Part shown: piece by piece, positions 2,324 to 42,273 of the stretch
Position numbering within the stretch: the stretch's first letter is position 1
Layout: each line of letters begins with the position of its first letter
Source of the DNA: an uncultured Arcobacteraceae bacterium
Lineage (GTDB): Bacteria; Campylobacterota; Campylobacteria; Campylobacterales; Arcobacteraceae
Direction of reading: 5' to 3'
NCBI GenBank assembly: GCA_964022095.1
Contig: CAXHZO010000012.1
Span: 14,424 to 78,423, forward strand
Length of the DNA stretch: 64,000 nt
Notes under the pieces: generated by a model
Databases searched by the model: none
What the model was told of the DNA's origin: nothing
What the model saw: the letters and a program-made list of their open reading frames with translations, nothing else
Made by a program: the position numbers and the translations under genes

Positions 2324-2324
2324 A

Positions 2325-9973: not shown

Positions 9974-11242
9974 ATGAATTTTTCAAATAATAAACCAAAG
10001 GTATATTTTAAAACATTTGGTTGTAGAACAAACGTTTTTGATACTCAAGTAATGATGAGTAATCTAAAAGATTTTGAAATAACACAAGATGAGAAAACAG
10101 CAGATGTAGTTGTAATAAACTCATGTACAGTTACAAATGGTGCAGATAGTACTGCTCGTGGATATATAAATGGACTTAAGAAGCTTCCAAAAGACCCAAG
10201 AGTTGTATTTACTGGATGTGGTGTTTGGACAAAGGGTGAGAGTCTATTTAAAGAAGAAAAAATAGATTCACTTTTTGGTCATAGCGAAAAAGAAAATATC
10301 AATGAATTACTAAAAAGTGAAGAGAGATTTTTCCAAGCTGGTGATTTAGAACATATTGATGAAACTATCGTTGAAGAGTTTGTTGGTAAAAGTAGGGCAT
10401 TTATCAAAATCCAAGAAGGATGTGACTTTAGATGTTCATATTGTATTATTCCTTATGTAAGAGGTGATGCAAGAAGTTATAAAGAAGATAAAATTTTAGA
10501 GCAAGTTACAACACTAGCAGCTAATGGTTTTGGTGAATTTATTTTAACGGGAACAAATGTAGGAAGTTATGGTAAAAAACAACACACTTCTTTAGCAAAA
10601 CTTCTTAAAAAAATGTCTCAAATAAAAGGTGTTAGACGTATACGAATGGGAAGTATTGAACCTATTCAAATTGATGATGAGTTCAAAGAAATCATTAATG
10701 AACCATTTATGGCAAAACACCTTCATATCGCACTTCAACATACTTCTAAAGATATGTTGAAAATTATGAATAGAAGAAATAAAGTTTTATCTGACTTAGA
10801 ATTATTTGAATTTTTAAGAGACAATGGATATGCCTTAGGGACAGATTTTATAGTTGGGCATCCAGGTGAAACTGATGAATTATGGAAAGAAGCTATGGAA
10901 AATCTTCATAAATTTCCATTAACTCATGTTCATGCCTTTACTTATTCAAAAAGAGATGGAACACCAAGTGCAACAATGAAACCAGAAATTAGAGGTGATG
11001 TTGCTAAAATTAGATACAATGAACTAACGAAAATAATTGAACAGAAAAATATAGATTTTAGAAAAAATAATACTAAAACACTAGAAGTTTTAATAGAACA
11101 AGAAAAAAATGGAAAATATATAGGATTAGATCAATTCTTTAATCAAATAGAAGTGGAATCACCAGTTGATATAACAGGAGATTGGATTTTTATTGATGAT
11201 TACGAAGTAAAGAGTGATAAAAATGTTGCAAAATTCAAATAA
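9974..11242 (+). CDS. mtaB: tRNA t6A37 methylthiotransferase (radical SAM)
   Basis: KTFGCRTN, INSCTVT, IKIQEGCDFRCSYCIIP. Confidence 0.92.
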   Translation: MNFSNNKPKVYFKTFGCRTNVFDTQVMMSNLKDFEITQDEKTADVVVINSCTVTNGADSTARGYINGLKKLPKDPRVVFTGCGVWTKGESLFKEEKIDSLFGHSEKENINELLKSEERFFQAGDLEHIDETIVEEFVGKSRAFIKIQEGCDFRCSYCIIPYVRGDARSYKEDKILEQVTTLAANGFGEFILTGTNVGSYGKKQHTSLAKLLKKMSQIKGVRRIRMGSIEPIQIDDEFKEIINEPFMAKHLHIALQHTSKDMLKIMNRRNKVLSDLELFEFLRDNGYALGTDFIVGHPGETDELWKEAMENLHKFPLTHVHAFTYSKRDGTPSATMKPEIRGDVAKIRYNELTKIIEQKNIDFRKNNTKTLEVLIEQEKNGKYIGLDQFFNQIEVESPVDITGDWIFIDDYEVKSDKNVAKFK

Positions 11243-12704
11243 CAAAAACGATAATAAGAACATAGACAAAAACTTTAAACTTATGGCTTTATCTGCCATA
11301 GTTTTATTGATTTTATTTTTATATACAATTTATAAAAGTAGTGTACATATACAAAGTAGTTCATACTATGTGGGTGTACTGTTTTTATTTATTTTACTTT
11401 TTTTAGCATTGGTTTTAAAAGCTAATCAAGATAAAGTAAGAAAGTTTTTAAATAAAGGCAAGCCTACAAAGTCTGCTTTTAACGAAGAGCTTGTAAAAAC
11501 ACGAGCTTCTGTTTCAAATGAAGAGTTAAATACTTCTATCTCTTCTGTAACTTCAAACGTAACTTTTAAAGATATTGCAGGAATTGGTGAGATAAAAGAA
11601 GAACTAGAAGAAGTAGTTGAATTTTTAAATGAACCTAGTAAATATTTAAAATATGGTGTAAAATTACCAAAAGGTGTACTTCTTGTAGGACCTCCAGGTG
11701 TTGGTAAAACACTTATAGCAAGAGCAGTAGCAGGTGAGGCTGATGTTCCGTTTTTCTATCAAAGTGGTGCTAGTTTTGTACAAATCTATGTTGGAATGGG
11801 TGCAAAAAAAGTACGTGAACTTTTTGCAAAAGCAAAACAAAGTGCCCCTGCAATAGTATTTATTGATGAAATCGATGCAGTTGGAAAAGCAAGAAGTGGT
11901 AAGTCAAATGATGAAAGAGAAGCTACTTTAAATGAACTATTAACTCAAATGGATGGATTTGATGGCGATAGTGGTGTTATTGTAATTGCGGCAACTAATA
12001 AGATTGAAGTACTTGATGATGCACTTTTAAGAGCAGGTAGATTTGATAGAAGATTACATGTTGGATTACCTAATGTTGAAGATAGAAAGAAGATTTTAGA
12101 ACTATATTTACAAAATAAAAACCATGAATTAGATTTACATAAATTAGTAAATGACACAGCTGGATTTAGTTCAGCTGCACTTGCTACACTTATAAATGAA
12201 TCAATGTTAAATATGATTAAAAGAGATTCAAAAATCTTAGATATGGATGATATAGAAGTAGCTAAAAATAAACTTGAATTTGGTAAAAAACAAGTAAAAA
12301 TTTTAGATGAAAAACAAAAAGAGATTTTATCTATTTATCAAGCAAGTAAAGCATATATTTCTAAAACAAAGGTAGCCTTATTTGATGAAAGTGTTGCTAA
12401 AAATAATTCAACTTATCCCTCTTATCAAGAGTTATGTGAAAATATAAAAAGAGATTTAGCAGGAATCATTGGTGTAGAAGTTCTTAAAAAAGAGAAATAC
12501 GCAATAAATGAAAAAGATTTACAAAATGCAAAAAAAACCGCAACTGATATAGTTCAAACTTATGATATGGCAAATAGTATTGAAGATTTATTAGATGGTA
12601 TAAAAAATGAACTTAGAGCTGAACTGTCTCAAAATAGTGCAGAAGTTAATAGATTAAAAAATATTATGATTCAAAATGAGGTGATAACCCTTGAAGATAT
12701 CTAA
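11214..12704 (+). CDS. FtsH-like membrane AAA+ ATPase lacking the HExxH protease motif
   Basis: Two N-terminal TMs, GPPGVGKT, FIDEIDAVG, LLRAGRFDR; YQASK at the expected HEAGH position. Confidence 0.85.
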   Translation: MIKMLQNSNNKNDNKNIDKNFKLMALSAIVLLILFLYTIYKSSVHIQSSSYYVGVLFLFILLFLALVLKANQDKVRKFLNKGKPTKSAFNEELVKTRASVSNEELNTSISSVTSNVTFKDIAGIGEIKEELEEVVEFLNEPSKYLKYGVKLPKGVLLVGPPGVGKTLIARAVAGEADVPFFYQSGASFVQIYVGMGAKKVRELFAKAKQSAPAIVFIDEIDAVGKARSGKSNDEREATLNELLTQMDGFDGDSGVIVIAATNKIEVLDDALLRAGRFDRRLHVGLPNVEDRKKILELYLQNKNHELDLHKLVNDTAGFSSAALATLINESMLNMIKRDSKILDMDDIEVAKNKLEFGKKQVKILDEKQKEILSIYQASKAYISKTKVALFDESVAKNNSTYPSYQELCENIKRDLAGIIGVEVLKKEKYAINEKDLQNAKKTATDIVQTYDMANSIEDLLDGIKNELRAELSQNSAEVNRLKNIMIQNEVITLEDI

Positions 12705-18381: not shown

Positions 18382-21300
18382 TTATAATTTACTAATTTTT
18401 AAATCAATATTAGAAGTTTTAGAAGATTGTGTTTTGACGTCGATTTTTTTAATAACTTTAATTTGTTTACTTGGAATAGATTTGTCTTTTACTAAGTAGT
18501 TCTTGATATTTTCAACTCTATTTTTTGCCATTATTTCTAAGTCTTTTTGAGTAATATTTTGTTTAGCAATAATAAACTCTTCTAAGGCTTTTTTATATGC
18601 TTTTAAATCTAAATTATCATTTTTAGTATAGCTTTGTTTTAAGTCATCAGCATCTTTATCAAAGTCTTCATATAAATCTTTTAGTAAATCTATATAATCC
18701 TCTTCATAATCTTTATTGCTTTTATCTGGAATTTCATTATTTACTATTTTTTCAAAATTTGCTTTTTTTAGTGCATATAAATCTTTTTGTTTATCATATG
18801 ATGGAGCTAATTCTAAAACAAGATCTTGTTTTTTTGTTAGTATATTTGTAATTTTATCTAAAGTCTCTTTTTGTATTGGAGTGATGTCATTTTTACCAAA
18901 ATCGAAATCAACACTATTTATCTCATTTGGGTCATATCCAAACACAGCTCCAAGTAAAGAAAATGGTGCAGTAACAGCTTTCATAATTAAATTAACAAAG
19001 GCTTTAAATACAATAGGTGCAATTGAGAACTGAGGATCATCTACATTTCCACTTACTGGTAAGTTTAAATCAATCACACCATTTGAGTCTTCAAGTAAAG
19101 CAATGGCTAATTCAAGTGGTAAAGAAACAGCATCTTCACTTTTTACCTCATCACCTAATTTTAATTGTTTTATTAAAACATTATTTTGTGCTTCAAGATT
19201 TGATTTTTCAATATTATATTTTAAATCTAAGTCAAGTCTTCCACTTGCTAGTTCTCTTCCTATAAATTTACCAGTATATGGAGTGAAGTTTTGCATTGCA
19301 ATATTTTTAAATATCATATTAATATCAGTTAAAACTTTAATACTATTTGGATTTACAACACCTGTAATTTTTGTAGTTCCATATTTATTTACAATACCAT
19401 TAACGCTTAGTTTTGAAGTACTTGATTTTTCACTTCTAAATTCACTAATCTTTCCATTTAGTTTTGATACTGTTGTTTTAAATGCAATTGGTAAGTTCTT
19501 ATCTTCAAAATTAAGTTGACCATTTTTTATATCAATTGGGCCAATATCTATTTTTTTTGTATTGTTATTACTTGTTGTTTCTTTTTTAACAACTTTTGGT
19601 TCTTCTTCTTTTTTTGTATTAGTAGATTTTGGAAGTATTACACTAATAGTTGGTTTATTTAAAACTGTTTTTGTAACCTTAAGTAGTTTATTAGAGTTGT
19701 AAATTCCAGATACACTAAGATCAATATTGCTTGCTTGAATATTTGTTTTATCTTTAGTATTTAAAAAGTTTACTCTTGGTTGAACTACTCTTATAGCATT
19801 TATATTTAAGCCAGAGGCTTTTTGTGATAATTTATTTACGTATATTTGTAAATCATTTGTTTTTAATGATATATTGTTTTTTCTATCATTAAAGTTTATA
19901 TCAGGACGACTTAGTTTAATAGTTTTTATATCTATATTAGAACCATTTAAAGCTAAACTATTTAGATCTATATTTGTCGATTTTACTAAAACACTCATTG
20001 CATTTTTTTTATCAGTTAAATTTAGATTTGGTGTATTTACTGCAATTTTATTAATATTGATTTTAGAACCATTTATCTTTAAATTGCTTGCATTGATTTT
20101 TGATTGATTTACTTTTATATTAAGTTTTGATTGTATCTCATCAAAGTTGATATTTGAAAGTGTCGTATTAAGTGAATTAACACTAATATTTGAGCCATCT
20201 ATATTTATATTATTTGCATTAATGGCATTTGAAGTTGTATTTACTCTTATACTAGACTTATCTTTAAAATTTAAGGCATTTGTATTTAGTTTTATACTAT
20301 TAATAGAAGTTTTATTATCTACTAAGTTTAGTTTGTCAAGATTTATTCCAATTTTATTTGTAATTACACTTAAAGAGTTTTTTCTATCTTCAAAACTTAC
20401 TTTTGGAGTATTTAGTGATAATTGATTTAAATCTATATTTGAATTTGCAATTTTTAGAGATGATAGTTTTGTATCTATATTTTGTGTTTTTACACTAAGA
20501 GCATTTTTATTATCACTAAATGAAATACTTGGGGCATTTAAACTAAAGTTTTTTAAATCTATATTTGAACCATTTATATCTAAAGATGCTAATTTACTAT
20601 TATTGTTTTGTGTTGATACAGTCATATTATTTACTGTATCACTATACTTAGCGTTTAGGTTTTTTAGATTTGTATTATTTAGTTTTACAATCCAAGGTTT
20701 AGTGTTTGTAGTTTCTTCTTTTGTTTCATTAGTATTACTTTTTACTAAGTTTGCAAAGTTTAAACCTGTTTTATTTTGTATCAGGTTTAGATTTAATGAA
20801 TCAATTGTAGGAGTATCTAGATATATTGATTGTTTAACTAAATCAAAATCAAACTTTGAAATATCAAACTTTTTTAAGCTCGCAATATCTGTACCATCTT
20901 GACTTAGCTTTAGATTGTTTATATTTATATTTGTAGAATTAAGTTTTATATCTATTTGTTTACTTGTATCAATATTAAAATCTAAATCTATATTTACATT
21001 TGCTTCTTTATTAAGTGCAAAATTAAAACTACTCATATCATAATCAAGTACTTCTTTTACTCTAAGATCTTCAAGTTTAGTTTTACCATACATTTTAAAA
21101 GGTACTAGTCTAAATGCACCTTCTACTGATAACTTTGTAAATTCGTTTATTTTTAATTCCAAGTCATTTGATGATAATGAGTCTTCAAATGTACCTAAAT
21201 CTCTTAGTTTATAATTTAGGTCATGTATTGTTATCTTATAAGATTTGTCATTTTTTAGTTTTGTAAAATCAATCTTAGAATTTTCTAAAAATATCTTAGA

Positions 21301-21732
21301 AACTAAAAACTTTATATCACTTGATGATTCTTGTTTTTCAGGCCCTTGTTTTGTAGTTGATGGTTTAACTAATTGTGTTAAGTTAAAAGTACCATCTTTA
21401 TTTTCTACTACATTTAAATATAGTTTTTCTAATTTTACTTCTTGTACATTTGCATGTAAATCTGTAATAGATCTAAGTAAACCTAAGTCTAAAGTTAATT
21501 TATCAAATGAAGCAGTAGGGTTTTGTAGCCCTAATTTATAGTTGTATATTCTTGCAGTTAAAGAATAAGGATTAAATTCTACTTTTTCTATACTACTTTT
21601 TAGTGTTAGATTTTCATCTAAATTTTTTATTAATTGGTCTTTTAAAACACCAGGTATTACCTTGAATCCAATAGTAGTGTATATTGCTAATATAAAGCAA
21701 AGCCACCAAAATGTTTTTTCTATTTTTCCCAT
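18382..21732 (-). CDS. DUF748/AsmA-like envelope protein with internal ~42-aa repeats
   Basis: N-terminal TM, VEFNPYSL, FTPYTGKFIG...LPLELAIALLEDSNGVIDLNLPVSGNVDDPQF, OmpA-like C-terminal region. Confidence 0.8.
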   Translation of the reverse strand: MGKIEKTFWWLCFILAIYTTIGFKVIPGVLKDQLIKNLDENLTLKSSIEKVEFNPYSLTARIYNYKLGLQNPTASFDKLTLDLGLLRSITDLHANVQEVKLEKLYLNVVENKDGTFNLTQLVKPSTTKQGPEKQESSSDIKFLVSKIFLENSKIDFTKLKNDKSYKITIHDLNYKLRDLGTFEDSLSSNDLELKINEFTKLSVEGAFRLVPFKMYGKTKLEDLRVKEVLDYDMSSFNFALNKEANVNIDLDFNIDTSKQIDIKLNSTNININNLKLSQDGTDIASLKKFDISKFDFDLVKQSIYLDTPTIDSLNLNLIQNKTGLNFANLVKSNTNETKEETTNTKPWIVKLNNTNLKNLNAKYSDTVNNMTVSTQNNNSKLASLDINGSNIDLKNFSLNAPSISFSDNKNALSVKTQNIDTKLSSLKIANSNIDLNQLSLNTPKVSFEDRKNSLSVITNKIGINLDKLNLVDNKTSINSIKLNTNALNFKDKSSIRVNTTSNAINANNINIDGSNISVNSLNTTLSNINFDEIQSKLNIKVNQSKINASNLKINGSKININKIAVNTPNLNLTDKKNAMSVLVKSTNIDLNSLALNGSNIDIKTIKLSRPDINFNDRKNNISLKTNDLQIYVNKLSQKASGLNINAIRVVQPRVNFLNTKDKTNIQASNIDLSVSGIYNSNKLLKVTKTVLNKPTISVILPKSTNTKKEEEPKVVKKETTSNNNTKKIDIGPIDIKNGQLNFEDKNLPIAFKTTVSKLNGKISEFRSEKSSTSKLSVNGIVNKYGTTKITGVVNPNSIKVLTDINMIFKNIAMQNFTPYTGKFIGRELASGRLDLDLKYNIEKSNLEAQNNVLIKQLKLGDEVKSEDAVSLPLELAIALLEDSNGVIDLNLPVSGNVDDPQFSIAPIVFKAFVNLIMKAVTAPFSLLGAVFGYDPNEINSVDFDFGKNDITPIQKETLDKITNILTKKQDLVLELAPSYDKQKDLYALKKANFEKIVNNEIPDKSNKDYEEDYIDLLKDLYEDFDKDADDLKQSYTKNDNLDLKAYKKALEEFIIAKQNITQKDLEIMAKNRVENIKNYLVKDKSIPSKQIKVIKKIDVKTQSSKTSNIDLKISKL

Positions 21733-21841: not shown

Positions 21842-22642
21842 ATGAATAATATAAAAAAACAATTTTTAGGGTTTTACTATACACCATCACTTTTTGAAAA
21901 TATACTAGGTATAAATCAGTTTGAATTTGAAAATATAGATATAGGTAATATAAATATAGATATACAAATACAAAAGAAACTTCCATTAGGTAAAAGAATA
22001 GAGTATTTTTTTGAAGAGTATATAAAGCATAGTAGTAAATATGAATTAAAGTATAAGAATATACAAGTAATAAAAGATAAAAATACATTAGGTGAAATTG
22101 ATTTTATTTTATATGATAAAGCTAATAAGAAGTATATACACACAGAACTTGTATACAAATACTACTTATATGATACTAGTTTTGAAAATGAGATAGATAG
22201 GTATATAGGGCCAAATAGAAATGATACATTAGTCAAGAAACTAAATAAACTAAAAGAAAAACAGTTCCCACTACTTTTTAATGATCAAACTAAACAGTAT
22301 ATAGATATAGACTTTAGCAATATATATCAAAATAACTCTTTTAAGGCAAATATATATCTTCCATACAAAAAAGATGTAAATATAAATATAGTTAATAAAA
22401 AGTGTGTAAAAGGTTTTTATATAAATTTTGAACAGTTTAAGAAAGAAGATGAGTTTAAAAACTATAAATACTATTTACCACATAGATATGATTGGGTTAG
22501 TAGTATAGATAAACAAATACAATACATAGAGTATGAAGAGTCATTAAAGTATATAGAGTATTTCTTAAATCTTAAAAAATCACCATTAGTATGGCTAAAA
22601 GATGATGAGGTATACAAAGAGTTCTTTATTACTTGGTGGTAG
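21842..22642 (+). CDS. DUF1853 family protein
   Basis: LGKRIEYFF, TLGEIDFI, HTELVYKYYL, YIGPNRNDTL. Confidence 0.8.
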   Translation: MNNIKKQFLGFYYTPSLFENILGINQFEFENIDIGNINIDIQIQKKLPLGKRIEYFFEEYIKHSSKYELKYKNIQVIKDKNTLGEIDFILYDKANKKYIHTELVYKYYLYDTSFENEIDRYIGPNRNDTLVKKLNKLKEKQFPLLFNDQTKQYIDIDFSNIYQNNSFKANIYLPYKKDVNINIVNKKCVKGFYINFEQFKKEDEFKNYKYYLPHRYDWVSSIDKQIQYIEYEESLKYIEYFLNLKKSPLVWLKDDEVYKEFFITWW

Positions 22643-22710
22643 ATTAGGTTAAATTAACAATAATTGTTTATTAGATACAATCCATATAGAATAAGAAGGA
22701 TGAATATATT

Positions 22711-23811
22711 ATGACAGTTATAGAATTATTTCAAAAATTATTAAGATTTAAATCTGTTACACCTGATGATGATGGAGCATTTGATTTTATACAGGAGTAT
22801 CTAGGTGATACTTGGGAATGTATCAGTGTTGATATGGAAGGTGTTAAAAATAGATTTTATTATAAAAAATTTAATGACAATCCTCAGCACTTATGTTTTG
22901 CAGGACATATAGATGTAGTACCTCCAGGTGAAGGTTGGGATGTAGATCCATTTGCAGCTGATATTGTTGATGGAGTTATTACTGCACGTGGTACACAAGA
23001 TATGAAAAGTGGAGATGCTGCTTTTTTATATGCTTGTAAGCATGCAGTTAATTTTGATGGGACACTTAGTATTCTTATGACTTCTGATGAAGAAGGTGAA
23101 GGAACATATGGAACTATCAAGATGTTAGAACATCTAAAAGAAATAGATTTTATTCCTCAATATGCAGTAGTAGCAGAACCAACTTGTGAAGAAGTTTTTG
23201 GAGATGCTATTAAAGTAGGGCGAAGAGGTAGTATAAATGGATATATTACTATAAAAGGTAAACAAGGACATGCAGCTTACCCTGAGAAGTGTATAAATCC
23301 AGTACATAACTTCGCTGAGGTTTTACCAAGAATTGCAGGGCATAACTTAGATAATGGAGATGAATATTTTTCACCTAGTAAAATGGTTATGACAGATATT
23401 AGAGGTGGAATGGAAGTTACAAATGTAACTCCACCAAACCTAAAACTAATGTTCAATGTGAGAAATTCAACAAATACTACAAGAGAAAGTGTTGAAGAGT
23501 TTATTCATAAAAACCTAGAAGGTTTAGAATATGACTTTAGAACAACTCAAGGTTCATTTCCTTTTGTTACAAATAAAGAGTCAAAAGTAGTAAAAGCAAT
23601 GGAAAATTCAATCAAAGAAATAACAGGTGTTACTACAAAACATAGTACAGCAGGTGGAACTAGTGATGCTAGATATTTTGGTAGCTTTGGAATAGAAGCT
23701 ATTGAATTTGGTGTTATAAATGATACTATTCATAGTGTTGGTGAAAGAACTACTGTAAAAGAAGTAGAAGACTTAACAGCTGTTTATGTGGATTTGATTG
23801 AGAAGTTTTAA
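22711..23811 (+). CDS. dapE: Succinyl-diaminopimelate desuccinylase
   Basis: FAGHIDVVPPG, RGTQDMKS, TSDEEG, GRRGS, GHAAYP, GGTSDAR. Confidence 0.95.
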   Translation: MTVIELFQKLLRFKSVTPDDDGAFDFIQEYLGDTWECISVDMEGVKNRFYYKKFNDNPQHLCFAGHIDVVPPGEGWDVDPFAADIVDGVITARGTQDMKSGDAAFLYACKHAVNFDGTLSILMTSDEEGEGTYGTIKMLEHLKEIDFIPQYAVVAEPTCEEVFGDAIKVGRRGSINGYITIKGKQGHAAYPEKCINPVHNFAEVLPRIAGHNLDNGDEYFSPSKMVMTDIRGGMEVTNVTPPNLKLMFNVRNSTNTTRESVEEFIHKNLEGLEYDFRTTQGSFPFVTNKESKVVKAMENSIKEITGVTTKHSTAGGTSDARYFGSFGIEAIEFGVINDTIHSVGERTTVKEVEDLTAVYVDLIEKF

Positions 23812-23823
23812 GAGGAATAGAAA

Positions 23824-24222
23824 ATGGAAGATAACTTAACAAGATGTAGACAAAGATTTACAAACTATGAAAAATCATTGAGACATCTTGAAACTACTGT
23901 TGAAAAAGATGTTTTGAACGAGATAGAAAAAGCAGGATTAATACAGTTTTTTGAGGTAACTTTCGAGTTAGCTTGGAAAGTAATGAAAGATTTTCTCACA
24001 GCTGAGGGATATGAAGTAAAAAGTCCAAGAGCTAGTATAAAAACAGCCTTTGAATACGGACTAATAGAAAATGGAACTTTATGGCTTGAAGCTCTTGAAA
24101 AAAGAAATCTTGCATCACACACTTATGATGACCAAATACTTGATGAACTAGAAGAGTTGATAATAAACTCTTACTATCATATCTTAGAAGAGTTCAAAGA
24201 AGCTATAAAGAAAAAGCTATGA
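23824..24222 (+). CDS. HEPN protein (HI0074-like), putative RNase toxin
   Basis: GLIQFFEVTFELAWK; RX4HXY motif RNLASHTY. Confidence 0.85.
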   Translation: MEDNLTRCRQRFTNYEKSLRHLETTVEKDVLNEIEKAGLIQFFEVTFELAWKVMKDFLTAEGYEVKSPRASIKTAFEYGLIENGTLWLEALEKRNLASHTYDDQILDELEELIINSYYHILEEFKEAIKKKL

Positions 24223-24515
24223 TAGGACTTACACAAAAAGAGCTAGAGGTATTAGAAAAAGTATTTAAAAAGTTTAATAAACTAGAAGAAATAATACTTT
24301 TTGGCTCAAGAGCTTTAGGTACACATAAAAAAGCTTCTGATATAGACCTAGCAATAAAAGGTGATGTAGATATAAATACCTTGGCAAAACTAAAATACAC
24401 ACTTGAAGAAGATACTTTACTTCCATACTTCTTTGATATAGTTATATATGATAATCTTGAAAATGAAGAGCTTAGAAAGCATATTGATGAGTTTGGAAAA
24501 GTTATATTTAAATAA
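24219..24515 (+). CDS. Minimal nucleotidyltransferase (MNT), putative antitoxin
   Basis: LFGSRALGTHKKASDIDLA (GSX10DXD); ATGA overlap with the HEPN gene. Confidence 0.88.
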   Translation: MIGLTQKELEVLEKVFKKFNKLEEIILFGSRALGTHKKASDIDLAIKGDVDINTLAKLKYTLEEDTLLPYFFDIVIYDNLENEELRKHIDEFGKVIFK

Positions 24516-24543
24516 AATGATAAGTATTTAAAGGTAGTCTATA

Positions 24544-27500
24544 ATGAATAATTATATCGTTCAAAATATGACAAGATATTTGAATATAGAACATTTTTCT
24601 CAAATATTTAATAATGACTATGTATCTTATTTTGATGAAAGAATAACTAAACCAGATTTTAAAGAATTATATAATTCTAAATATTTAATGCTTGTTGCTG
24701 AACCAGGTTATGGAAAAACAAGACTTTTTAAAGAACTTGTTTTAAGAGCAAATGAAAATGACCTAAAAGTATTTTTCATTGATGCAAAACAAATTAAAAA
24801 TTCAATAAAAGAAAATATAGAAAAATGCAAAGTTATTGAATCTAATATTTCTGAAGAAAAATTACAAAAAAAGATTTATTTTTGCAATAAAGAAGATTAT
24901 ATATTAGATGATAAAACTATTATTTGTTTAGATGCTCTTGATGAATTACCTTTTTCAAACCTTTATAGTTTTTTTGAGCAAGTTGAAGAGTTTATAATTG
25001 ATAATCCAAATATAAAAGTATTTTTATCTTGTAGAACCCATCATTTAAATAAGATAGAATATGATTTATCCAACATTTCATTTGAATATTTAACTTTAGA
25101 CAAATTTTATGGAAAACAAGTTTTTAATTATCTAAAAAATAAAAATATTGATGATGAAACAATTGAAAAAATAAAAGAAAAAACAAAATTAGGAAATCTA
25201 TTTGATTTTTTATTAATTCCAAGATTTTTATACTATTTTAGTGAATTAATTCAAAATAAAAACATTGAAGAGATAATAAACTTATCAAGAAGTGAAATTT
25301 TTGAAGATTTTATATATAGAAAAATTGATAAAGAAAGAGATAAAAAGTATCCAGAATCTGAAAATCATACTATAAAAAGAGTTTTAGAAGAATTAGCATT
25401 AGTAATGAAGATTTTTCAAGTTTCTCAAATCAGTAAAGATGATTTTTTTACAATCTTTAAAGAGCTTAATCTAGGAAATATTTTTACAGGAAAAGGACTA
25501 ATAGAGAAACTATGTGATAAAAGTCTTCTAAAAGATAATATAGACTATTTAGAATTTGAAAACCAAGAGTTTTTAGATTATTTGGCTTCAAAAGAATTGA
25601 GACGTTATGAAAAAGTTGAACAAGTTTTTTTTGATATTGCACTAGAACCATACCTGAAAGAAATATATACACCTTGGTTTTATGTAATGCCTTTTGTATT
25701 AGAACAAAATCTAAATATGGTAAGCATCCTTTTGGATTTTTTAGAGAAAAACTCTAATAAAATTTTACAAGAAGAATATTTTAAAATATTAATAAGTGTT
25801 GATAGTAAATTCTTAGACGTAAAGACTAGATTAAAAATATTTGATTTAGTTTTTAATTACAACATTGAACATAATCAGTGGATGTACCCTTATTTAGATA
25901 ATTTAATCTATTTTTATGATGAGAAAGAACACTATCAAAAAATAATAGATTCAATAAATGGTGATGTTGAAACTAATAATATAAAAATCCGAAATTCAAT
26001 AGATATAATTGAGAGTTTGTGTAAAAAAGAGCTTATTAAAGCTGAACAAATAGAGTTTTGGAAAGAAAAGTTTTTAGAATGGCTAAGGCTTGATGTAAAA
26101 AAATTTAGGAATTTACATCAAGCGATAGTTTCAAGTTGTCCAGCAATTATGAAAAATGATTTTGATTGGATAAAAAAGATATATTTTATATTTGAAACAG
26201 GTATAAATGTACAATATGAATACGCAAGAACTTGTTATAAAATTGCTCCAAATGATAATTTAAGTATAGATATATATTTTAATTGTGAAAAACAATTTAA
26301 AAAAAATAAGATAGATAATATTGGAAGAATTGATGGTAATGTAAAATATATTTCAAAAGTGGATAGTTTAGATGGAATAAGGTATATTTTAGAAAAATTG
26401 ACTTCATCAAATTGGAAAGAATATTTAAGTTATATTTTTAGTACAAGTTATAGAAGTAAATTTCAAGATGATTTAGAGCAATTGATTTTAAACATTAGAA
26501 GTAATCTAAATGATGAAATTATTGAATTATTAAAAATTTTATTGATAAAAATTGTGAAATTAAAAATTAAATATGAAGAATATAGTAAATATTTACTTCA
26601 ACAAATATTTAAAATTTTAATTGAGAAAGAAATAAATTTCTTAAGTTTATTTATTGATGAACTTTATAAATTATATGAAAACAAAGAATTATATTATTTT
26701 GATTTTGAATATATTATTGAGACAGAATTATCAAAATATTTTAATAATAAAAATTTTGATGAAATATACAAAAAATTAATAACTTTTAAATTTGAAAAAA
26801 GAAATATTGATGATTTACTTATTTACTCACTTTTTTTTAATGAAAGAGTTAATAAAAAAGTAAAAAATAAAATTGAAAAAATTTATAAAAAAGAATTAAA
26901 AGTAATTGAAAAAGATAGAGAAAAGTTAAAAAATAAAAATGCACGAGATTTAAAAAATAAACAATTAGGTTTATTTAGACAGTGGGAACATAAATTAGAA
27001 CCAGAAGTAGGAAAATTTGTTAAAGATTTATTTGAATTTTACATAAAGAATAAAGAAGCTTTAGAAAAATATGAGAAGTTTGAAGAGAATAGAACTAAAA
27101 CTATTTTATGGGCTAAAAAAGTTATAAAGAATAATAATCCGTTAAATGGTAAAGTTGAAAAAAGTGGAAATAGCTCAACTGTTTTTGGAATACTTTTTTA
27201 TAAAGATGCCATAGAACTTTTATCTAAAGAAAATATTGAATTCACTACTGATGAACAAAATTTGATAGACAATGTATTTAGGTACTTACCTTTTGATATA
27301 AATCGTGAATATGAAAGTACATTAAAACTTGCAAAAAAACCTTCACCACAAGCTATACAAGATATATTAGATGTTTATGCTGGAGAAAAAAGGAAAGATA
27401 ACTTAGATATATATCATCCTCAAAATTTTTTAGAAATTTATAAACAAACTAATATAAAGGAAGCAGAACCTATACTTTTAAAAATGCTTGAGAATTCTGA

Positions 27501-28638
27501 AATAGATGAATATATTCGTAAAGAAATTATTCAGGTCCTACCTAAAGAAATATTAACTCAAGATATTATAGTTAAGTATATAAAACAAAATGGTGAATCA
27601 GATATTTTATATGAAAAATTATTGATAAATTTAATTAAAAAATTTAATGATAAAGAATCAATCAGAAAAACATTTGAAATAGTTACTAAAAAAGGTAAAG
27701 AAACTAATATACCTGAATACCAAACTAATCTATTTGGAAGTGCATTAGACTTAGAATATGGATATTCAAATGAATTAGCACTAGAACTCACTCAAATAAA
27801 TTATGATATTGAAGAAGATAAAAAGTTACTAGAAATAGCTTTAGACTTAAGGAATAAAGGTAAACATGTTAATGGATATTTTTTTGAAGAGATTGTATTT
27901 AGACATATAAAATATTTAAATCATAAAAAAACATTTGAACCTTTAATTGAAATTGAAAAGTTCCTTCAAGAAAAAAGTTCTCATAAAAACTTATATTCTT
28001 TTGAATATAGGTTCAAAGAATTAAAACAAATATATTTAGATAATTTATCAAAACCGAAACATATAATGGAAGCAATTAAAGCATATAAAAAATCAAAAAA
28101 GAGTGAATATATTACGGTTAATTCTTCTTTACATTTATTAGAGATTGTAAAAGATAGTATTTCAAATGAAATTAGAAATTGGATTGAAGTTGAAGGTGCT
28201 TATAAACATATTGGAGAATTATCAAAAAAAGATACAAATACAAATGCTGAAGATTTTATACAAAAAACAATAAAAACTCAAATTGAACTAGGTTTAGTAA
28301 AAAAAGGTTTAAGACATACAGATATTAAAATTAAAAGGGAAGAACAAACTTTAGATGATAAAAGAGCAGATTTTACAATAAATTATGGTTTTATTGGTCA
28401 AGTATTATTAGAATTAAAATTATCACATAATTCAGAATCAAAACCAACACGAAAAGATGGAAAAGATTATAAAGAAAAATTAATTAAGTATATAGGTGCT
28501 ACAAATTCTGATTATGGGTTATTTATAATTTTTAACACTAAAGAAAATAAAATAGTTTTTGAAAGACAAATAAAAGCTTTAGTAAAATTTTATGAAGATA
28601 ATGAAAATATATTTGTATTAGGAATTAATTGCTTATAA
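24544..28638 (+). CDS. NACHT/STAND NTPase with long helical region and C-terminal PD-(D/E)xK nuclease-like domain
   Basis: Walker A AEPGYGKT, Walker B ICLDALDE, FLSCR, LIPRFL, FENQEFLDYLAS; C-terminal REEQTLDDKRADF...VLLELKLS. Confidence 0.75.
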   Translation: MNNYIVQNMTRYLNIEHFSQIFNNDYVSYFDERITKPDFKELYNSKYLMLVAEPGYGKTRLFKELVLRANENDLKVFFIDAKQIKNSIKENIEKCKVIESNISEEKLQKKIYFCNKEDYILDDKTIICLDALDELPFSNLYSFFEQVEEFIIDNPNIKVFLSCRTHHLNKIEYDLSNISFEYLTLDKFYGKQVFNYLKNKNIDDETIEKIKEKTKLGNLFDFLLIPRFLYYFSELIQNKNIEEIINLSRSEIFEDFIYRKIDKERDKKYPESENHTIKRVLEELALVMKIFQVSQISKDDFFTIFKELNLGNIFTGKGLIEKLCDKSLLKDNIDYLEFENQEFLDYLASKELRRYEKVEQVFFDIALEPYLKEIYTPWFYVMPFVLEQNLNMVSILLDFLEKNSNKILQEEYFKILISVDSKFLDVKTRLKIFDLVFNYNIEHNQWMYPYLDNLIYFYDEKEHYQKIIDSINGDVETNNIKIRNSIDIIESLCKKELIKAEQIEFWKEKFLEWLRLDVKKFRNLHQAIVSSCPAIMKNDFDWIKKIYFIFETGINVQYEYARTCYKIAPNDNLSIDIYFNCEKQFKKNKIDNIGRIDGNVKYISKVDSLDGIRYILEKLTSSNWKEYLSYIFSTSYRSKFQDDLEQLILNIRSNLNDEIIELLKILLIKIVKLKIKYEEYSKYLLQQIFKILIEKEINFLSLFIDELYKLYENKELYYFDFEYIIETELSKYFNNKNFDEIYKKLITFKFEKRNIDDLLIYSLFFNERVNKKVKNKIEKIYKKELKVIEKDREKLKNKNARDLKNKQLGLFRQWEHKLEPEVGKFVKDLFEFYIKNKEALEKYEKFEENRTKTILWAKKVIKNNNPLNGKVEKSGNSSTVFGILFYKDAIELLSKENIEFTTDEQNLIDNVFRYLPFDINREYESTLKLAKKPSPQAIQDILDVYAGEKRKDNLDIYHPQNFLEIYKQTNIKEAEPILLKMLENSEIDEYIRKEIIQVLPKEILTQDIIVKYIKQNGESDILYEKLLINLIKKFNDKESIRKTFEIVTKKGKETNIPEYQTNLFGSALDLEYGYSNELALELTQINYDIEEDKKLLEIALDLRNKGKHVNGYFFEEIVFRHIKYLNHKKTFEPLIEIEKFLQEKSSHKNLYSFEYRFKELKQIYLDNLSKPKHIMEAIKAYKKSKKSEYITVNSSLHLLEIVKDSISNEIRNWIEVEGAYKHIGELSKKDTNTNAEDFIQKTIKTQIELGLVKKGLRHTDIKIKREEQTLDDKRADFTINYGFIGQVLLELKLSHNSESKPTRKDGKDYKEKLIKYIGATNSDYGLFIIFNTKENKIVFERQIKALVKFYEDNENIFVLGINCL

Positions 28639-28771
28639 TGATAATTTTACTTTACATTTTCCCAAAAAATTCTATAAAAGATAAGTAGCTTTATCATACT
28701 AGACGCTTAATATCAAACTAACATAATATAAGTTAGTATTTTTATTATTTAATCATCAAAAAGGAAATACT

Positions 28772-29182
28772 ATGAAGTCATTAAGTCCAAATCTAGCCGT
28801 AAAAGATATAAAACAAACTGTAGCATACTATCAAGATAATTTTGGTTTTGAAATTGAGATGCTTGTTGATTCCTTACAAGAAGATTTTAGTCCACAAATT
28901 AAAAAAGAAAAAGATTATATTTGGGCACTTATAAAAAATGGTGACGTTTCTGTAATGCTACAAGAAGAAAATAGTATAAAAGAAGATATTGGTGAATTTT
29001 ATAAAGATATTGGAGCTTCAATTAGTTTATATATTGAAGTAGATGATGCAGACTTCTTATACGAAAAAGTAAAAGAAAATGTTGAAGTATTGAAGCCTAT
29101 TTATACAACATGGTATGGACAAAAAGAATTCTATATAAAAGATATAAATGGGTATATTTTAGCTTTTAGTTCAAAAGTTTAA
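28772..29182 (+). CDS. VOC/glyoxalase family protein
   Basis: LSPNLAVKDI, SLYIEVDD, WYGQKEFYIKDINGYILAF. Confidence 0.85.
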   Translation: MKSLSPNLAVKDIKQTVAYYQDNFGFEIEMLVDSLQEDFSPQIKKEKDYIWALIKNGDVSVMLQEENSIKEDIGEFYKDIGASISLYIEVDDADFLYEKVKENVEVLKPIYTTWYGQKEFYIKDINGYILAFSSKV

Positions 29183-29213
29183 ATGAGAATTGATAAGATA
29201 AACATGTTAAAAA

Positions 29214-29684
29214 ATGCAAATAATAGAATATGATAAAAAATACCAAAAAGTGATACCTGAACTTTTTACTAATACTATACATAAAACATGCAACAAAGAT
29301 TATTCAAAAGAGCAATTAAATGTTTGGGCTAATATTCATATTGATTATAAAGCTTGGCATAATAGATTAAATAAAACAAAACCATATTTAGCAATAATTG
29401 ATGAGAAACTTGTAGGTTTTGTAGAGTTTTATGATGATTACATTGATTGTTTTTATGTACACAATGAATATCAAGGAAAAGGTGTAGGAAAAATGCTTAT
29501 GAATCATATTTTTAAACTAGCTAAACAGAAAGAACAATCTCTTTTAAGAGTAGATGTAAGTATTACTGCAAAAGCATTTTTTGAAAAGTTTGGTTTTACT
29601 GAAGTTAAAAAAAACATACTAAAAAGACAGAATATTCAGCTGATTAATTATAGTATGGAAAATAAAATAAATAATATAAATTAG
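29214..29684 (+). CDS. GNAT acetyltransferase (YafP-like)
   Basis: IDCFYVHNEYQGKGVGK, AKAFFEKFGF. Confidence 0.85.
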   Translation: MQIIEYDKKYQKVIPELFTNTIHKTCNKDYSKEQLNVWANIHIDYKAWHNRLNKTKPYLAIIDEKLVGFVEFYDDYIDCFYVHNEYQGKGVGKMLMNHIFKLAKQKEQSLLRVDVSITAKAFFEKFGFTEVKKNILKRQNIQLINYSMENKINNIN

Positions 29685-37638: not shown

Positions 37639-38055
37639 ATGGAATTACCATCAATAAATTTATTCTCTTTTATTTTTAATTTAAAAAAAGAAAAACCAAA
37701 AAATGGATATTTTTTAGAATTTAATAAAAAAGGATCTGAAAATTCTAGACATCATATATTTAAAGAGAACAAAGTGATAGACTCAAGAATAGATTTAAAA
37801 AATATTTCTATGGGTGTTCTTTGGGGATACAATGGTGCTGGTCCAAGACAAGCTGCACTAGCAATACTAGCTGATTATAAGAATGATGAATTTGCCTTAA
37901 AACATTATGAGCAGTTTGCTATTGATGTTATCAATAAATTAAAACATGATAGAAATGATTTTTTGAAATTTACTACTATCCAAGATTGGATTGACAATGT
38001 TCATTTTACAGCTGATTATGCTGAATTAGAAGATGATAAAAGTGAGCAATGCTAA
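37639..38055 (+). CDS. DUF6166-like protein (cargo)
   Basis: WGYNGAGPRQAALAILADY...ALKHYEQFAIDVI; AAAGGA RBS. Confidence 0.6.
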   Translation: MELPSINLFSFIFNLKKEKPKNGYFLEFNKKGSENSRHHIFKENKVIDSRIDLKNISMGVLWGYNGAGPRQAALAILADYKNDEFALKHYEQFAIDVINKLKHDRNDFLKFTTIQDWIDNVHFTADYAELEDDKSEQC

Positions 38056-39024: not shown

Positions 39025-39894
39025 ATGAAAAGAGGAATTGTAGCGACACCTGGAATTTTACATAAATTACCTCAGGGTATTCAAATGGAAAGAAGTTTAA
39101 ATTTTGATGAACTTAAATATTACATATTATATTTTAATAAAGTAGTGATTCCTTCTAATAATGGTTTATATATTGGGCTACCCAATGAGAAAGAGTTAAT
39201 CGAATCTAATCTTATTAAAAGACCAAACTATAATGTTTCAGGATTAATAGATTATGCATTATTAACAAAAATACAGACTACTGAATTAGAAAGATTACAA
39301 AAAATAAATGATAATACTTACTGGAATTTACATCAAATAGGTGGAGACTCAATTATTGCCTCTAATGAAGATCTTGTAAGAAAAGAAACAATAAAATTTA
39401 AGTTATTAAATGTTCTTCCAGTTCCTTCAGAAGATGTGAGTATTGATGAGCTTTCAATATTTAAAGAAAAGAGAAGTGACGAATTTAATTCACTACATGA
39501 AACAATTGATAATCTTTATCTTGATATATTAAAATCTCCGGATCAAGTATTCTCTGAAAGAAAAATAATAATTCAACTTCAGAATGATATTGGAAATATT
39601 CAAAAGGTTTCATCAGAGAAATGGAAAATCTTTAAAGGATATAGTTTGGATTATGACTTTACAATAGCTACTGAATTATCAACTTCAGGATTAATTGCAG
39701 GTGGTGGGGCAGGATATGTATTTGATCAAGCTCTTTTTGGTACGACATTTCCAATAGGTACAATTATAGGAGCAGCTGTTAAGGGTATTGATATTAAAGT
39801 ATTACCTAGCATGACATTAAAAAAAGAGACTCCAAACCACCAATTATCATATATATCGCATGGAATTAAGAATGGAATTATAAAGACTGTTTAA
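39025..39894 (+). CDS. DUF6236-like protein (cargo)
   Basis: YYILYFNKVVIP, LLNVLPVP...IDELSIFKEKRSDE; Gly-rich hydrophobic C-terminal stretch. Confidence 0.6.
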   Translation: MKRGIVATPGILHKLPQGIQMERSLNFDELKYYILYFNKVVIPSNNGLYIGLPNEKELIESNLIKRPNYNVSGLIDYALLTKIQTTELERLQKINDNTYWNLHQIGGDSIIASNEDLVRKETIKFKLLNVLPVPSEDVSIDELSIFKEKRSDEFNSLHETIDNLYLDILKSPDQVFSERKIIIQLQNDIGNIQKVSSEKWKIFKGYSLDYDFTIATELSTSGLIAGGGAGYVFDQALFGTTFPIGTIIGAAVKGIDIKVLPSMTLKKETPNHQLSYISHGIKNGIIKTV

Positions 39895-40465: not shown

Positions 40466-40862
40466 CTATGCAAATGGATAAATTGACTCTAATGGTCTTT
40501 GTTTCCATTCTTTGAGTAATGGTATAACCTTATCTGTAAAATCACTTATTGTTGCTTTTGAAAATTTCATACCAAATTTTTCAATGTGTTCAGCTATTTG
40601 GCTATAACTATTACCTAAAGCATATAAAGATAAAATCTTTTGTTCTATATGATCTGACATATGGGTTTGGTGTTTTTTAACAATATGAGGTTCGTAAGAT
40701 CCCCTTCCTGTCTCTTGGAACTTCTAACTCAATTCACCAACACTACTTTTCATAGTTTTTAAAGATTTACCATTCTTTCTATTTTTATTTATCTCAGAAG
40801 TTAGATGAGATTTTAACTCTGCTTCTAATGCAGCTTTAATTCATTCAAGTGCATCTGTTCAA
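40466..40862 (-). pseudogene. IS256-family transposase, N-terminal remnant
   Basis: AALEAELKSHL...NRKNGKSLKTMKSSVGE / ELEVPRDRKG / SYEPHIVKKHQ...IEQKILSLYALGNSY...TDKVIPLLKEWKQRPLESIYPF, with frameshifts; DDE domain absent. Confidence 0.88.
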
Positions 40863-40911: not shown

Positions 40912-40919
40912 TGAGGTTT
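40912..40919 (+). repeat. 8-bp target site duplication, right copy (TGAGGTTT)
   Basis: Identical to 37360-37367. Confidence 0.9.
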
Positions 40920-42273
40920 AGTTTTTACACTCCTTACATACTTTTGCAAACTCTTTTATAGCTTGTATTATTTCATCTTCTTTAAATCCACCAAATCCCA
41001 TAGCATATAAATCATCTTTTCTATTATATATTTTTATATTTACTTTTTGAGTTTCTTTTAAAAGTAATTCTTTATTAATATTACTATTTAATTTTATAAG
41101 GATATTTAAGCCACTTCCTTCTCTTATGATTTCCATTTCATCTTTTAACTCTTTTTTTAAAGACTCTTTCATTAGATTGTGTTTTTTTCTATTTAGAGTT
41201 CTTACTTTTCTTATATGTTTGATAAAATACTCTTCTTTTAAAAATAGCTCTAATGTTTTTTGTATATCAATAGAAATACCTGAAAATGGATAGTCAAAAC
41301 ACTCTTTGTATTTTGAAATTAAGCTTTTTGGTAATATTAAGTATCCCACTCTTAGAGCTGGAGAAAATGATTTTGAGACAGTTCCAAAATATATTACTCT
41401 ATCATTATTGTTTATTCCTTGAAGGGCAGGAATTGGTTTGTTGTAATAACTTAATTCACTATCATAGTCATCTTCTATTATATAGCTATTTGTTTTTTGT
41501 GCCCATTGAAGGATTTTTATTCTATTTGCTATTGGTATTGTAACACCAGTTATATATTGATGTGCAGGAGTTAGATATATTAGTTTTGATTTGATTTTTT
41601 CAAGGTCATTTAAATCTATTCCTTGTTTTGTCATTGAAAGGTACTTTATATCATAAGACATTTGTGTAAATACTTTTTTTGCAACCCTATAAATATCCCC
41701 TTCAATAGCAATACTACTTGTAAAGTCTTTTAATAATAAAGAAACAATAAACATTGCATCTGAAAAACCACTACAAAGAACTATTTGATCTTCACTACAA
41801 TTAACTCCCCTTGAAGACCTTAAATATTTTTTTAACTCAATTCTTAATGATTCTAATCCTTGTGTATTTACATATGAGCCAAAATCAATATCTTCTTTTA
41901 ATACTTTGTTATAAACTTTATTCCATGCTTTTATAGGAAAAGTATCGCTACTTAGTTTTGCTGGATAAAAATCATATTTATATTTTTTAGTACTTGTATT
42001 TTTGTTTTGTTCATCAATAGGTTTAGTTAAGTCTTGATATAAATCTTCACTTACATAATAACCTTTTTGAGCAATACTATCTATGTACCCTTCTGCATAT
42101 AGTTGATTATAAGCATTTTGTACAGTATTTTTACTAAGATTATATTCATTTGCTAAAGTTCTAATAGAAGGTAGTTTTTCTCCAGCTTTTCTTGTGCCAT
42201 CTTTTATTCTTTCTTTTATTTGTTCATACAATTGAATATAAAGTGGTATGTCAGATTTTATAAATTTATACAT
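40918..42273 (-). CDS. MocR/GabR-family PLP-dependent transcriptional regulator
   Basis: GntR HTH PLYIQLY...LPSIRTLA...SKNTV; IIEDDYDSE; SKSFSPALRVGY; likely start ATG 42273 rather than 42315. Confidence 0.9.
   Translation of the reverse strand: MYKFIKSDIPLYIQLYEQIKERIKDGTRKAGEKLPSIRTLANEYNLSKNTVQNAYNQLYAEGYIDSIAQKGYYVSEDLYQDLTKPIDEQNKNTSTKKYKYDFYPAKLSSDTFPIKAWNKVYNKVLKEDIDFGSYVNTQGLESLRIELKKYLRSSRGVNCSEDQIVLCSGFSDAMFIVSLLLKDFTSSIAIEGDIYRVAKKVFTQMSYDIKYLSMTKQGIDLNDLEKIKSKLIYLTPAHQYITGVTIPIANRIKILQWAQKTNSYIIEDDYDSELSYYNKPIPALQGINNNDRVIYFGTVSKSFSPALRVGYLILPKSLISKYKECFDYPFSGISIDIQKTLELFLKEEYFIKHIRKVRTLNRKKHNLMKESLKKELKDEMEIIREGSGLNILIKLNSNINKELLLKETQKVNIKIYNRKDDLYAMGFGGFKEDEIIQAIKEFAKVCKECKN

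Follow-up and report, generated by a model that had tools for sequence, protein, structure and literature searches.

The 64,000-nucleotide stretch analyzed here (hereafter the window; contig CAXHZO010000012.1 of assembly GCA_964022095.1, positions 14,424 to 78,423 of the forward strand, from an uncultured Arcobacteraceae bacterium) carries, some distance past dapE (22711-23811), a gene for a protein of 1364 residues that runs from an N-terminal NACHT NTPase module through a long helical region to a C-terminal domain of the PD-(D/E)xK type (Table 1). Between dapE and this NACHT-nuclease gene lies a pair formed by a HepT-like gene and an MntA-like nucleotidyltransferase gene (23824-24515, forward strand), all in the same direction, with 12 bp from dapE to the pair, a 4-bp overlap within the pair and 28 bp from the pair to the NACHT-nuclease gene; the HepT-like protein (HI0074 family, NTase_sub_bind) scores 102.9 bits against a cut-off of 55.8. 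The GC content is 0.19-0.23 within the NACHT-nuclease gene, compared to 0.30-0.32 over dapE and 0.25-0.29 downstream. The open-reading frame (ORF) begins with ATG and contains no internal stops, and its start codon is sound, because the alignments of homologs begin at residue 1 and M1 is invariant across 20 diverse sequences. We put forward that this gene probably encodes a single-gene antiphage sensor resembling the NOD-like receptors (NLRs) of animals, in which oligomerization would switch on the C-terminal nuclease.

On the evidence of sequence and modeling, the N-terminal module is a NACHT module with nothing in front of it. The P-loop of the NACHT clade (GxxxxGK[ST]) is represented by G55-Y-G-K-T59, and the Walker B segment D130-A131-L132-D133-E134 fits the D[GAS]hDE signature that, in the available text of Kibby et al. 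(10.1101/2022.07.19.500537), tells NACHT from other NTPases of the signal transduction ATPases with numerous domains (STAND) class. Walker B is followed by S162-C-R164, in which S162 and R164 are invariant or nearly so, and none of the 46 aligned sequences deviates at G55, G57, K58, D130, D133, E134 or R164. An AlphaFold 2 (AF2) model of residues 1-560, computed on a 46-row alignment, reached a predicted local distance difference test (pLDDT) of 86.3 and a predicted template modeling score of 0.81. When this model was compared to the PDB with Foldseek, 83 matches were obtained at E ≤ 0.001, the best of them to NLRC4 at 1e-9, and every one of the first 50 rows is an animal NLR or a complex containing one (NLRC4, NLRP3, NLRP14, NOD2, NAIP/NLRC4, NLRP7, NLRP9 and NLRP1; top hits at E 1e-9 to 1e-8), with alignments spanning roughly 450-600 columns. 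The NTPase is followed by a helical domain and a winged helix, in the order seen in NLR NACHT modules. The initial annotation of this DNA had placed the NTPase within about 50 residues of the start, called it NLR-like NACHT and excluded an N-terminal effector, and all three statements hold: with the P-loop EPGYGKT already at residues 53-59, there is no room for an effector domain before it.

The C-terminal domain is, by conservation and modeling, of the restriction-endonuclease (REase) type with conserved catalytic residues, and is predicted to be an active nuclease. Its motif reads R1265-EEQTLDDKRAD1276-F, TINYGFIGQV and LLE1290-L-K1292; the string had been picked out beforehand as PD-(D/E)xK-like with a spacer of nine residues before LLELK. 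It is indeed there and goes beyond a chance resemblance, with catalytic residues invariant in relatives as distant as 22% identity; RADF and LLELK are separated by 10 residues rather than nine. Within the last 130 positions, E1236, G1255, R1265, E1266, D1276, Y1281, G1282, E1290, K1292 and Y1316 are invariant in 20 full-length relatives of 82% to 22% identity. In 34 C-terminal sequences the E, R, E, D, Y, E and K of these positions again show no variation, and E1236, D1276, E1290 and K1292 are at least 90% conserved in 46 sequences. In an AF2 model of residues 1101-1364 (pLDDT 87.0), the first half of the domain consists of a helix (1232-1253, carrying E1236) and strands at 1261-1265, 1277-1281 (with D1276 just before it) and 1284-1293 (carrying E1290 and K1292), and the second half of a helix (1304-1319), a strand (1324-1331), a helix (1336-1349) and a strand (1356-1362). 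This order of elements contains that of an alpha-beta-beta-beta-alpha-beta core, over which the conserved catalytic set is distributed as an acid on the first helix, an aspartate on the second strand and a (D/E)xK on the third. A wide structural search with VIA-align, which is independent of Foldseek, returned 165 chains with a Z of 5 or more, all of them below 8; at these modest values (Z 6.9-7.9), 15 of the 16 top rows are nucleases, comprising VC1899, Can2, CdiA-CT, Cdn1, BamHI, BglII, OkrAI, BpuSI, EcoRV, McrBC, BstYI, R.BspD6I, NgoMIV and LlaBIII, which we take to be members of the PD-(D/E)xK superfamily. A homodimer prediction for the C-terminal 264 residues scored 0.16 against a mark of 0.42 and carries no weight either way.

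The two modules are joined by a region that is helical where it was modeled (residues 401-560 and 1101-1231) and that gave no Pfam match in scans of residues 201-700 and 701-1100. About 900 residues of helical sequence had been expected here; the description is accurate, outside the NTPase and nuclease cores, for the modeled residues 1-560 and 1101-1364. Pfam scans detected no second effector-like domain in the protein.

The three-part anatomy, with its two folds and its strictly conserved catalytic residues, constitutes a fixed architecture over many phyla. A word-indexed search yielded 96 homologs at E ≤ 1e-3, mostly of 1300-1390 residues and up to 89% identical, with named representatives in Aliarcobacter cryaerophilus, A. 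butzleri, Sulfurimonas, Sulfurospirillum and Sulfurovum. At NCBI the homologs are named "NACHT domain-containing protein" or "hypothetical protein", and Pfam PF28130 (DUF8371, named after the Atlas listing) is on record for 72 of the 96, the seven closest not among them. When the last 264 residues were used in an exhaustive HMMER search, 312 cluster representatives (50% identity) were obtained at E ≤ 1e-3, 265 of them at E ≤ 1e-10. Among the best 150 of the 312, 96 are at least 1200 residues long and match at their extreme C-terminus; the remaining 54 are shorter, with a match that likewise reaches the C-terminal end, and may be 5′-truncated gene calls on short contigs. Since all matches among these best 150 end at the C-terminus and none of the proteins exceeds 1420 residues, the C-terminal domain was seen there in no other architecture. 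The length of the family is fixed at about 1350 residues. A scan of species-representative genomes produced 69 loci, the last eight of which match the NTPase only and are not family members. Full-length relatives were found in Campylobacterota, Nitrospirota, Planctomycetota, Bacteroidota (Segatella copri, Hoylesella, Hallella, Mucilaginibacter, Pedobacter and Pontibacter), Ignavibacteria, Actinomycetota, Negativicutes, Pseudomonadota and Patescibacteria.

Three of the homologous loci do not read through under translation table 11. In a metagenome-assembled genome (MAG) labeled Candidatus Peribacteria (L052, 3740-7690), the homolog is broken into small ORFs, the longest overlapping one having 205 residues; under table 25 the same region is open for 1242 residues with 15 TGA codons. 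This genome probably reads TGA as sense, in which case the family extends to recoded Patescibacteria and the table 11 ORF calls at this locus are, for that reason, unreliable. The homologs in a Nitrospirae MAG (L022, 6762-10763) and a Microbacter MAG (L074, 10001-14016) have longest ORFs of 1085 and 783 residues, respectively, against tblastn matches spanning about 1330-1360 residues, and may be pseudogenes or assembly errors.

Relatives of the gene tend to sit among defense genes. To describe their neighborhoods we used 39 of the 69 loci, after dropping 30 that were either partial or NTPase-only matches (27) or full-length matches on contigs shorter than 8 kb (L027, L028 and L071). ORFs within 5 kb were called as the greedy longest of at least 90 residues under table 11, and the resulting 354 were scanned with PADLOC at E ≤ 1e-8. 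Matches were obtained for 60 of the 354 ORFs (28/150, 20/150 and 12/54 by batch), distributed over 31 of the 39 loci, compared to 4 of 62 in a rough control made up of the other ORFs of the window, which is small and unmatched and whose four matches are confined to a separate island at 0.4-12.7 kb. The enrichment of homologs in defense islands, proposed earlier as a check on the function of the protein, is therefore present and should be read as indicative. At 11 of the 39 loci the matches to named systems are strong and near full-length (Table 1). The loci with no PADLOC match are L020, L023, L040, L052, L054, L055, L058 and L067, several of them almost flankless on one side. No conserved partner gene was found among 478 clustered neighbor ORFs within 7 kb at 40 loci. 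The most frequent neighbor family, a serine recombinase, occurs at five of the 40, and because no family exceeds that count, the protein appears to work alone.

Table 1. Features of the NACHT-nuclease gene in window coordinates, followed by the strong matches to named defense systems near its relatives, given by locus.
Feature	Position or locus	Strand	Basis
Whole gene, NACHT / helical region / PD-(D/E)xK protein, 1364 residues	24544..28638	+	ORF list and translation; stop codon included
NACHT module (NTPase core, helical domain, winged helix), about residues 40-400	24661..25743	+	AF2 model and Foldseek; boundaries approximate
Walker A / P-loop, E53-P-G-Y-G-K-T59	24700..24720	+	Sequence; conservation in 46 sequences
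Walker B with NACHT signature (D[GAS]hDE), D130-A-L-D-E134	24931..24945	+	Sequence; conservation in 46 sequences
Long helical region, about residues 401-1231, presumed sensor/scaffold	25744..28236	+	Models of 401-560 and 1101-1231; boundaries approximate
C-terminal PD-(D/E)xK (REase-fold) domain, about residues 1232-1364, by model	28237..28635	+	AF2 model, VIA-align neighbors
E1236, conserved acid, first helix of nuclease core	28249..28251	+	Alignments A1 and A2; helix 1232-1253 in model
D1276, presumed catalytic aspartate, start of second strand	28369..28371	+	Alignments A1 and A2; model
E1290-L-K1292, (D/E)xK on third strand	28411..28419	+	Alignments A1 and A2; strand 1284-1293 in model
CBASS cyclase and 2TM effector	L030		PADLOC
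SIR2-HerA	L031, L065		PADLOC
Type III methyltransferase	L032		PADLOC
DrmA, DrmB and TmtA (DISARM)	L041		PADLOC
PD-Lambda-1	L045		PADLOC
AbiEi/AbiEii	L047		PADLOC
Type IIG restriction-modification protein and SNF2 helicase	L057		PADLOC
Cas1	L060		PADLOC
Gabija GajA and GajB	L072		PADLOC
Type II/IIG methyltransferases	L075		PADLOC

The gene is accessory and horizontally moving. It is present as a single copy in the window genome and was detected in two of the 60 relatives of that genome searched (G016, at 61% identity, and G054, at 43%), where, apart from the gene itself, the neighbors are entirely unlike those in the window. It was not found in the same-genus genome G001, whose DNA synteny with the window covers a DUF748 gene, a DUF1853 gene and dapE, ends at the 3′ end of dapE and resumes at about 36.7 kb and again at about 44.1 kb of the window. 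The initial annotation had the gene inserted after dapE. The position of dapE upstream is correct, with the HepT/MntA pair in between, and what is missing in G001 is a variable segment some 13 kb long (window ~23.8-36.7 kb), which therefore does not amount to a clean single-gene insertion. In G001 a HipA-family gene follows dapE instead, and the site after dapE looks like a hotspot for toxin-antitoxin and defense cargo.

Metatranscriptome contigs give a hint, and no more than that, of natural transcription of the gene or of an allele close to it. Contigs of run X16 cover 24520-25081, 27822-28029 and 28335-28700 at 98-100% identity, and contigs of run X19, from a second study, cover four pieces of the gene at 92-96% identity and probably derive, given that identity, from an allele. 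Contigs from RNA libraries can hold DNA, and the uncovered parts of the gene prove nothing. A scan of 22500-29500 for promoters and terminators, with 41 promoter-like sites where 56.6 would be expected and not one terminator, carries no information.

Defense is the most likely role for the protein, and it is supported indirectly by the patchy distribution of the gene and by the defense-island neighborhoods of its relatives. In the mechanism we envisage, the NACHT NTPase would act as a nucleotide-driven switch and oligomerization hub, the helical region of about 800 residues as the sensor, most likely binding a phage protein, and the C-terminal PD-(D/E)xK domain as the effector. The resting protein would be a closed, inactive monomer. 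Ligand binding would lead to nucleotide exchange and to self-assembly through the NACHT modules, and the assembly would gather the C-terminal nuclease domains for DNA cleavage, stopping phage replication and probably killing or arresting the infected cell. We infer the trigger, the oligomerization, the cleavage of DNA and the resulting protection by analogy with Avs and bNACHT proteins.

Several observations weigh against this reading and have to be set beside the evidence presented above. No PADLOC match at E ≤ 1e-8 was found within 5 kb of the gene in the window, and the genes downstream appear to be metabolic (glyoxalase, GNAT, PhzF, racemase and homocysteine methyltransferase). The neighborhood statistic rests on crude ORF calls and on a control from a single genome, and many of the matches it counts are to candidate families (PDC-S04, S05, S09, S22, S26, S27, S45, S49, S72, S73 and HEC-01) or to generic domains, for example WYL, HTH, kinase and methyltransferase. 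PADLOC v2.0 models also miss the protein itself, their sole match being mad8 at E 0.007. At the N-terminus, the Pfam NACHT model (PF05729) scores 15.2 bits against a gathering score of 26.7, and NPHP3_N (23.8 bits against 24.8) and AAA (18.9 against 21.2) likewise stay below threshold; since PF05729 is on record for 31 of the 96 homologs, we attribute the miss to insensitivity of the model for a divergent, AT-rich member. For the C-terminal model, Foldseek returned no PDB match at E ≤ 0.001. This search had been named beforehand as a way to verify the nuclease fold, and its weak top rows (best E 0.008) are SfsA, Nt.BspD6I, Bax1, BstEII, a Cas4-like protein, Can2 and Mus81, so the check yields nucleases without a significant match. 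Pfam PDDEXK_3 stays below threshold (E 0.048, 14.5 bits against a cut-off of 22), and sequence searches of the PDB gave no meaningful match with either the single protein (E 0.24) or the family profile (E ≥ 0.097). VIA-align values below 8 can reflect a common structural arrangement and are ambiguous by themselves, which is why the nuclease assignment draws jointly on the fold and on the invariance of the catalytic set; on that basis, the REase fold predicted for the C-terminus is upheld.

The alternative that survives best, although we judge it unlikely, retains the same machinery with another trigger and another beneficiary, the target being non-phage mobile DNA such as plasmids, or the protein serving as an addiction or stabilization module of the elements that carry it. 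Homologs of 61-65% identity reside on two 133-kb Arcobacter plasmids, on one of which (CP129951.1) the record annotates a dGTPase, a DUF3800 protein and an AAA ATPase nearby, and no homolog was found among 50,697 phage records. Toxin-antitoxin genes adjoin the gene in the window, the corresponding hotspot in G001 holds HipA, and serine recombinases lie near five of 40 loci. Against this, most loci are chromosomal and set among antiphage systems, both plasmids are typed non-mobilizable, and the nuclease-bearing STAND proteins tested so far are, in the sources available to us, reported as antiphage.

We consider it quite improbable that the protein is instead an NTP-dependent restriction enzyme, in which the REase domain and the helical region would read modified or foreign DNA and the NTPase would gate cleavage, with no sensing of a phage protein. 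An NTPase combined with a PD-(D/E)xK nuclease is the makeup of McrBC and of many "nuclease-NTPase" defense operons (see also 10.1101/2025.07.10.664194), and McrBC appears among the structural neighbors at Z 7.0. However, the NTPase, as an NLR-type NACHT carrying a winged helix, is a switch rather than a translocase, the helical region of ~800 residues is reminiscent of the repeat sensors found in STAND proteins, and no methyltransferase or specificity partner is conserved beside the gene at the 40 loci. Very improbable, too, is a scheme in which the C-terminal domain tethers the protein to DNA, binds it or acts as sensor, and the output lies elsewhere, in NTP consumption or a recruited factor. 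Similarity of fold does not by itself show activity; yet the E...D...ExK set is invariant from 89% to about 22% identity, the pattern expected of an active enzyme, and the Pfam scans offer no other domain that could serve as effector.

We give very little credence to a three-gene unit with the HepT-like and MntA-like genes upstream. The common direction and small gaps would suit such a unit, and MntA-like (PDC-S09) genes are found within 5 kb at L026 and L042 as well, but the pair is not among the recurring neighbors, for which five of 40 loci is the maximum, the neighbors in G016, in G054 and on the plasmid are unrelated, and NCBIfam names identify HepT/MntA as a self-contained toxin-antitoxin pair. 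A STAND protein with a housekeeping or regulatory task, a DNA-processing domain and no part in genetic conflict, for which the metabolic genes downstream might speak, is scarcely credible for a gene that is missing from 58 of 60 relatives searched and spread over phyla in differing contexts near defense genes.

If the antiphage sensor that we favor is protective, the DUF8371 family (312 clusters at 50% identity) would join the bacterial NLR-like defenses as a widespread member, ranging over Arcobacteraceae, Sulfurimonas, Nitrospirota, Planctomycetota, gut Prevotellaceae and Patescibacteria, and it would constitute a clean case of a STAND switch controlling an effector at the far end of the chain. 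Because the architecture is fixed and partner genes are absent, the proposal lends itself to an easy single-gene test. Annotation would improve as well, given that NCBI names are generic and PADLOC v2.0 is blind to the family.

Elsewhere in the window, about 20 kb upstream of the NACHT-nuclease gene, lies a complete-looking Gabija pair (395-4217, forward strand), with GajA at 395-2320 (PADLOC E 7e-214) and GajB at 2325-4217 (E 1e-176). Just after it, a gene of the PADLOC candidate family PDC-S05 (4741-5214, forward strand) is named ORF6N by Pfam. PDC-S05 genes also stand directly upstream of the NACHT-nuclease homolog in three other genomes (L016, 8883-9908; L017, 9345-9953; L022, 6418-6687), Pfam naming them ORF6N in L017 and RhuM in L016. 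A 496-residue AAA ATPase (11214-12701, forward strand) matches IetA in PADLOC at E 4e-44 and TRIP13 more weakly. The protein of 1116 residues encoded at 18382-21732 on the reverse strand, conserved in G001, matches Pfam DUF748 from end to end (E 6e-191), and its tail bears a weak resemblance to OmpA. In a second variable stretch, a DUF6166 gene is found at 37639-38052 (forward strand), and a gene with the same annotation lies 6.6 kb downstream of the homolog on plasmid CP129951.1 (L087, 20621-21037). Finally, a stretch of about 370 bp (40468-40836), between the ORFs 39025-39894 and 40918-42315, recurs five or more times along the G001 chromosome, in dispersed copies of 82-84% identity; 56 bp of 92-96% identity come directly after it, and it resembles a repeated element or an RNA gene.

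Among known systems, Avs3 and Avs4 share with this protein the combination of a STAND NTPase, a large sensor and a nuclease effector in one chain, and the presumed logic of sensing a phage protein, oligomerizing and cutting DNA. In both, the effector is reportedly N-terminal and the sensor C-terminal, an arrangement ascribed to Gao et al. in 2022. The Avs NTPase is not known to belong to the NACHT clade. Here Walker A is at residue 53 and the nuclease makes up the last ~130 residues, so that the N-terminal effector of the Avs architecture is absent. Avs-type STAND proteins oligomerize upon target recognition, according to the available text of PMC13601566. A Nature 2026 survey distinguishes 589 STAND clades, 198 of them defense-associated; the available portion of its text refers to N-terminal effectors and C-terminal sensors and leaves C-terminal effectors unmentioned (PMC13581612). 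The RefSeq accessions of five relatives, the names DUF8371, EruA and HyoA, and the genera Aliarcobacter, Arcobacter, Sulfurimonas and Sulfurospirillum are absent from six of its supplementary files, a search that left MOESM3 and MOESM4 outside. Upx, a non-STAND single-protein defense system, is described in the accessible part of PMC13099982 as a dual nuclease with a PD-(D/E)xK core in its C-terminal domain. Residues 1123-1267 of its chain (PDB 9wuf) align to the C-terminal model at Z 6.8, with a root-mean-square deviation of 2.9 over 104 residues; Upx differs in carrying its second nuclease at the N-terminus, where the present protein has the NACHT NTPase.

Closer in layout are two families known to us from NCBIfam names, EruA (NF058535, "NACHT domain-containing antiphage protein EruA", 1318 positions) and HyoA (NF058534, "NACHT domain-containing antiphage protein HyoA", 1430 positions). 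A literature search turned up no antiphage paper behind either name, and their antiphage role is here that of the NCBIfam name alone. The protein itself matches EruA at the P-loop only, with 29.2 bits against a cut-off of 1000, and HyoA not at all at E ≤ 0.01. The best scores among relatives are 64.4 bits for EruA and 52.1 bits for HyoA (cut-off 1200), none of the 31 genome-derived relatives passes the EruA cut-off, and no protein of the window genome matches above it; the protein accordingly has no full-length match to a characterized family. Weak matches are nevertheless frequent: 32 of 35 diverse metagenomic relatives match EruA and 24 match HyoA at E ≤ 1e-3, and 25 and 13, respectively, of the 31 genome-derived relatives do so at E ≤ 1e-5. 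EruA resembles the family in size and in having its NACHT at the very N-terminus, family residues ~35-330 corresponding to profile positions 12-300 and ~1199-1300 to 1168-1244, and it differs in the middle ~850 residues, which have no match, and in the scores of 22-64 bits that relatives attain. For HyoA, family residues ~20-175 correspond to profile positions 10-160 and ~1155-1365, the C-terminal domain, to 1232-1388, both ends in the same order. Judged by coordinates alone, the C-terminal stretches of both profiles cover the D...ExK strands. Because these weak matches are collinear at both ends, we regard EruA and HyoA as distant relatives that appear to share the same head-to-tail layout, the family itself being neither.

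A bolder construction, doubtful as a whole, would unite this family, EruA and HyoA in one ancient superfamily of "head-first" NLRs with a closed-ring resting state. Its members may share a NACHT at residue ~50, a fixed sensor of ~800 residues and a PD-(D/E)xK tail, and may range from Campylobacterota and gut Bacteroidota to stop-codon-recoded Patescibacteria. The strict length may then reflect a nuclease parked in cis on the NACHT module, to be freed or paired only once the sensor is prised open, a geometry that would differ from the Avs tetramers solved so far.

The nearest precedent comes from the bacterial NACHT proteins of Kibby et al. (10.1101/2022.07.19.500537), beyond whose preprint our literature search found nothing on NACHT proteins with C-terminal nucleases or other effectors. 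As far as the available text of that preprint goes, bacterial NACHT proteins are antiphage, with REase and HNH DNases among their effectors, and the D48A substitution of bNACHT25 rescues a hyperactive allele. The Mrr-like REase of bNACHT25, with its catalytic D48, is N-terminal, in contrast to the nuclease examined here. The same text describes rarer effectors at the extreme C-terminus that are predicted to occupy the same place in the fold. The inverted architecture that the initial annotation singled out is thus real in its arrangement, with the NACHT at the head and the predicted nuclease at the tail, and has a precedent in that preprint and, as it appears, in EruA and HyoA: the protein is a member of an already recognized kind, the bacterial NACHT proteins with a C-terminal effector, rather than of a new one.

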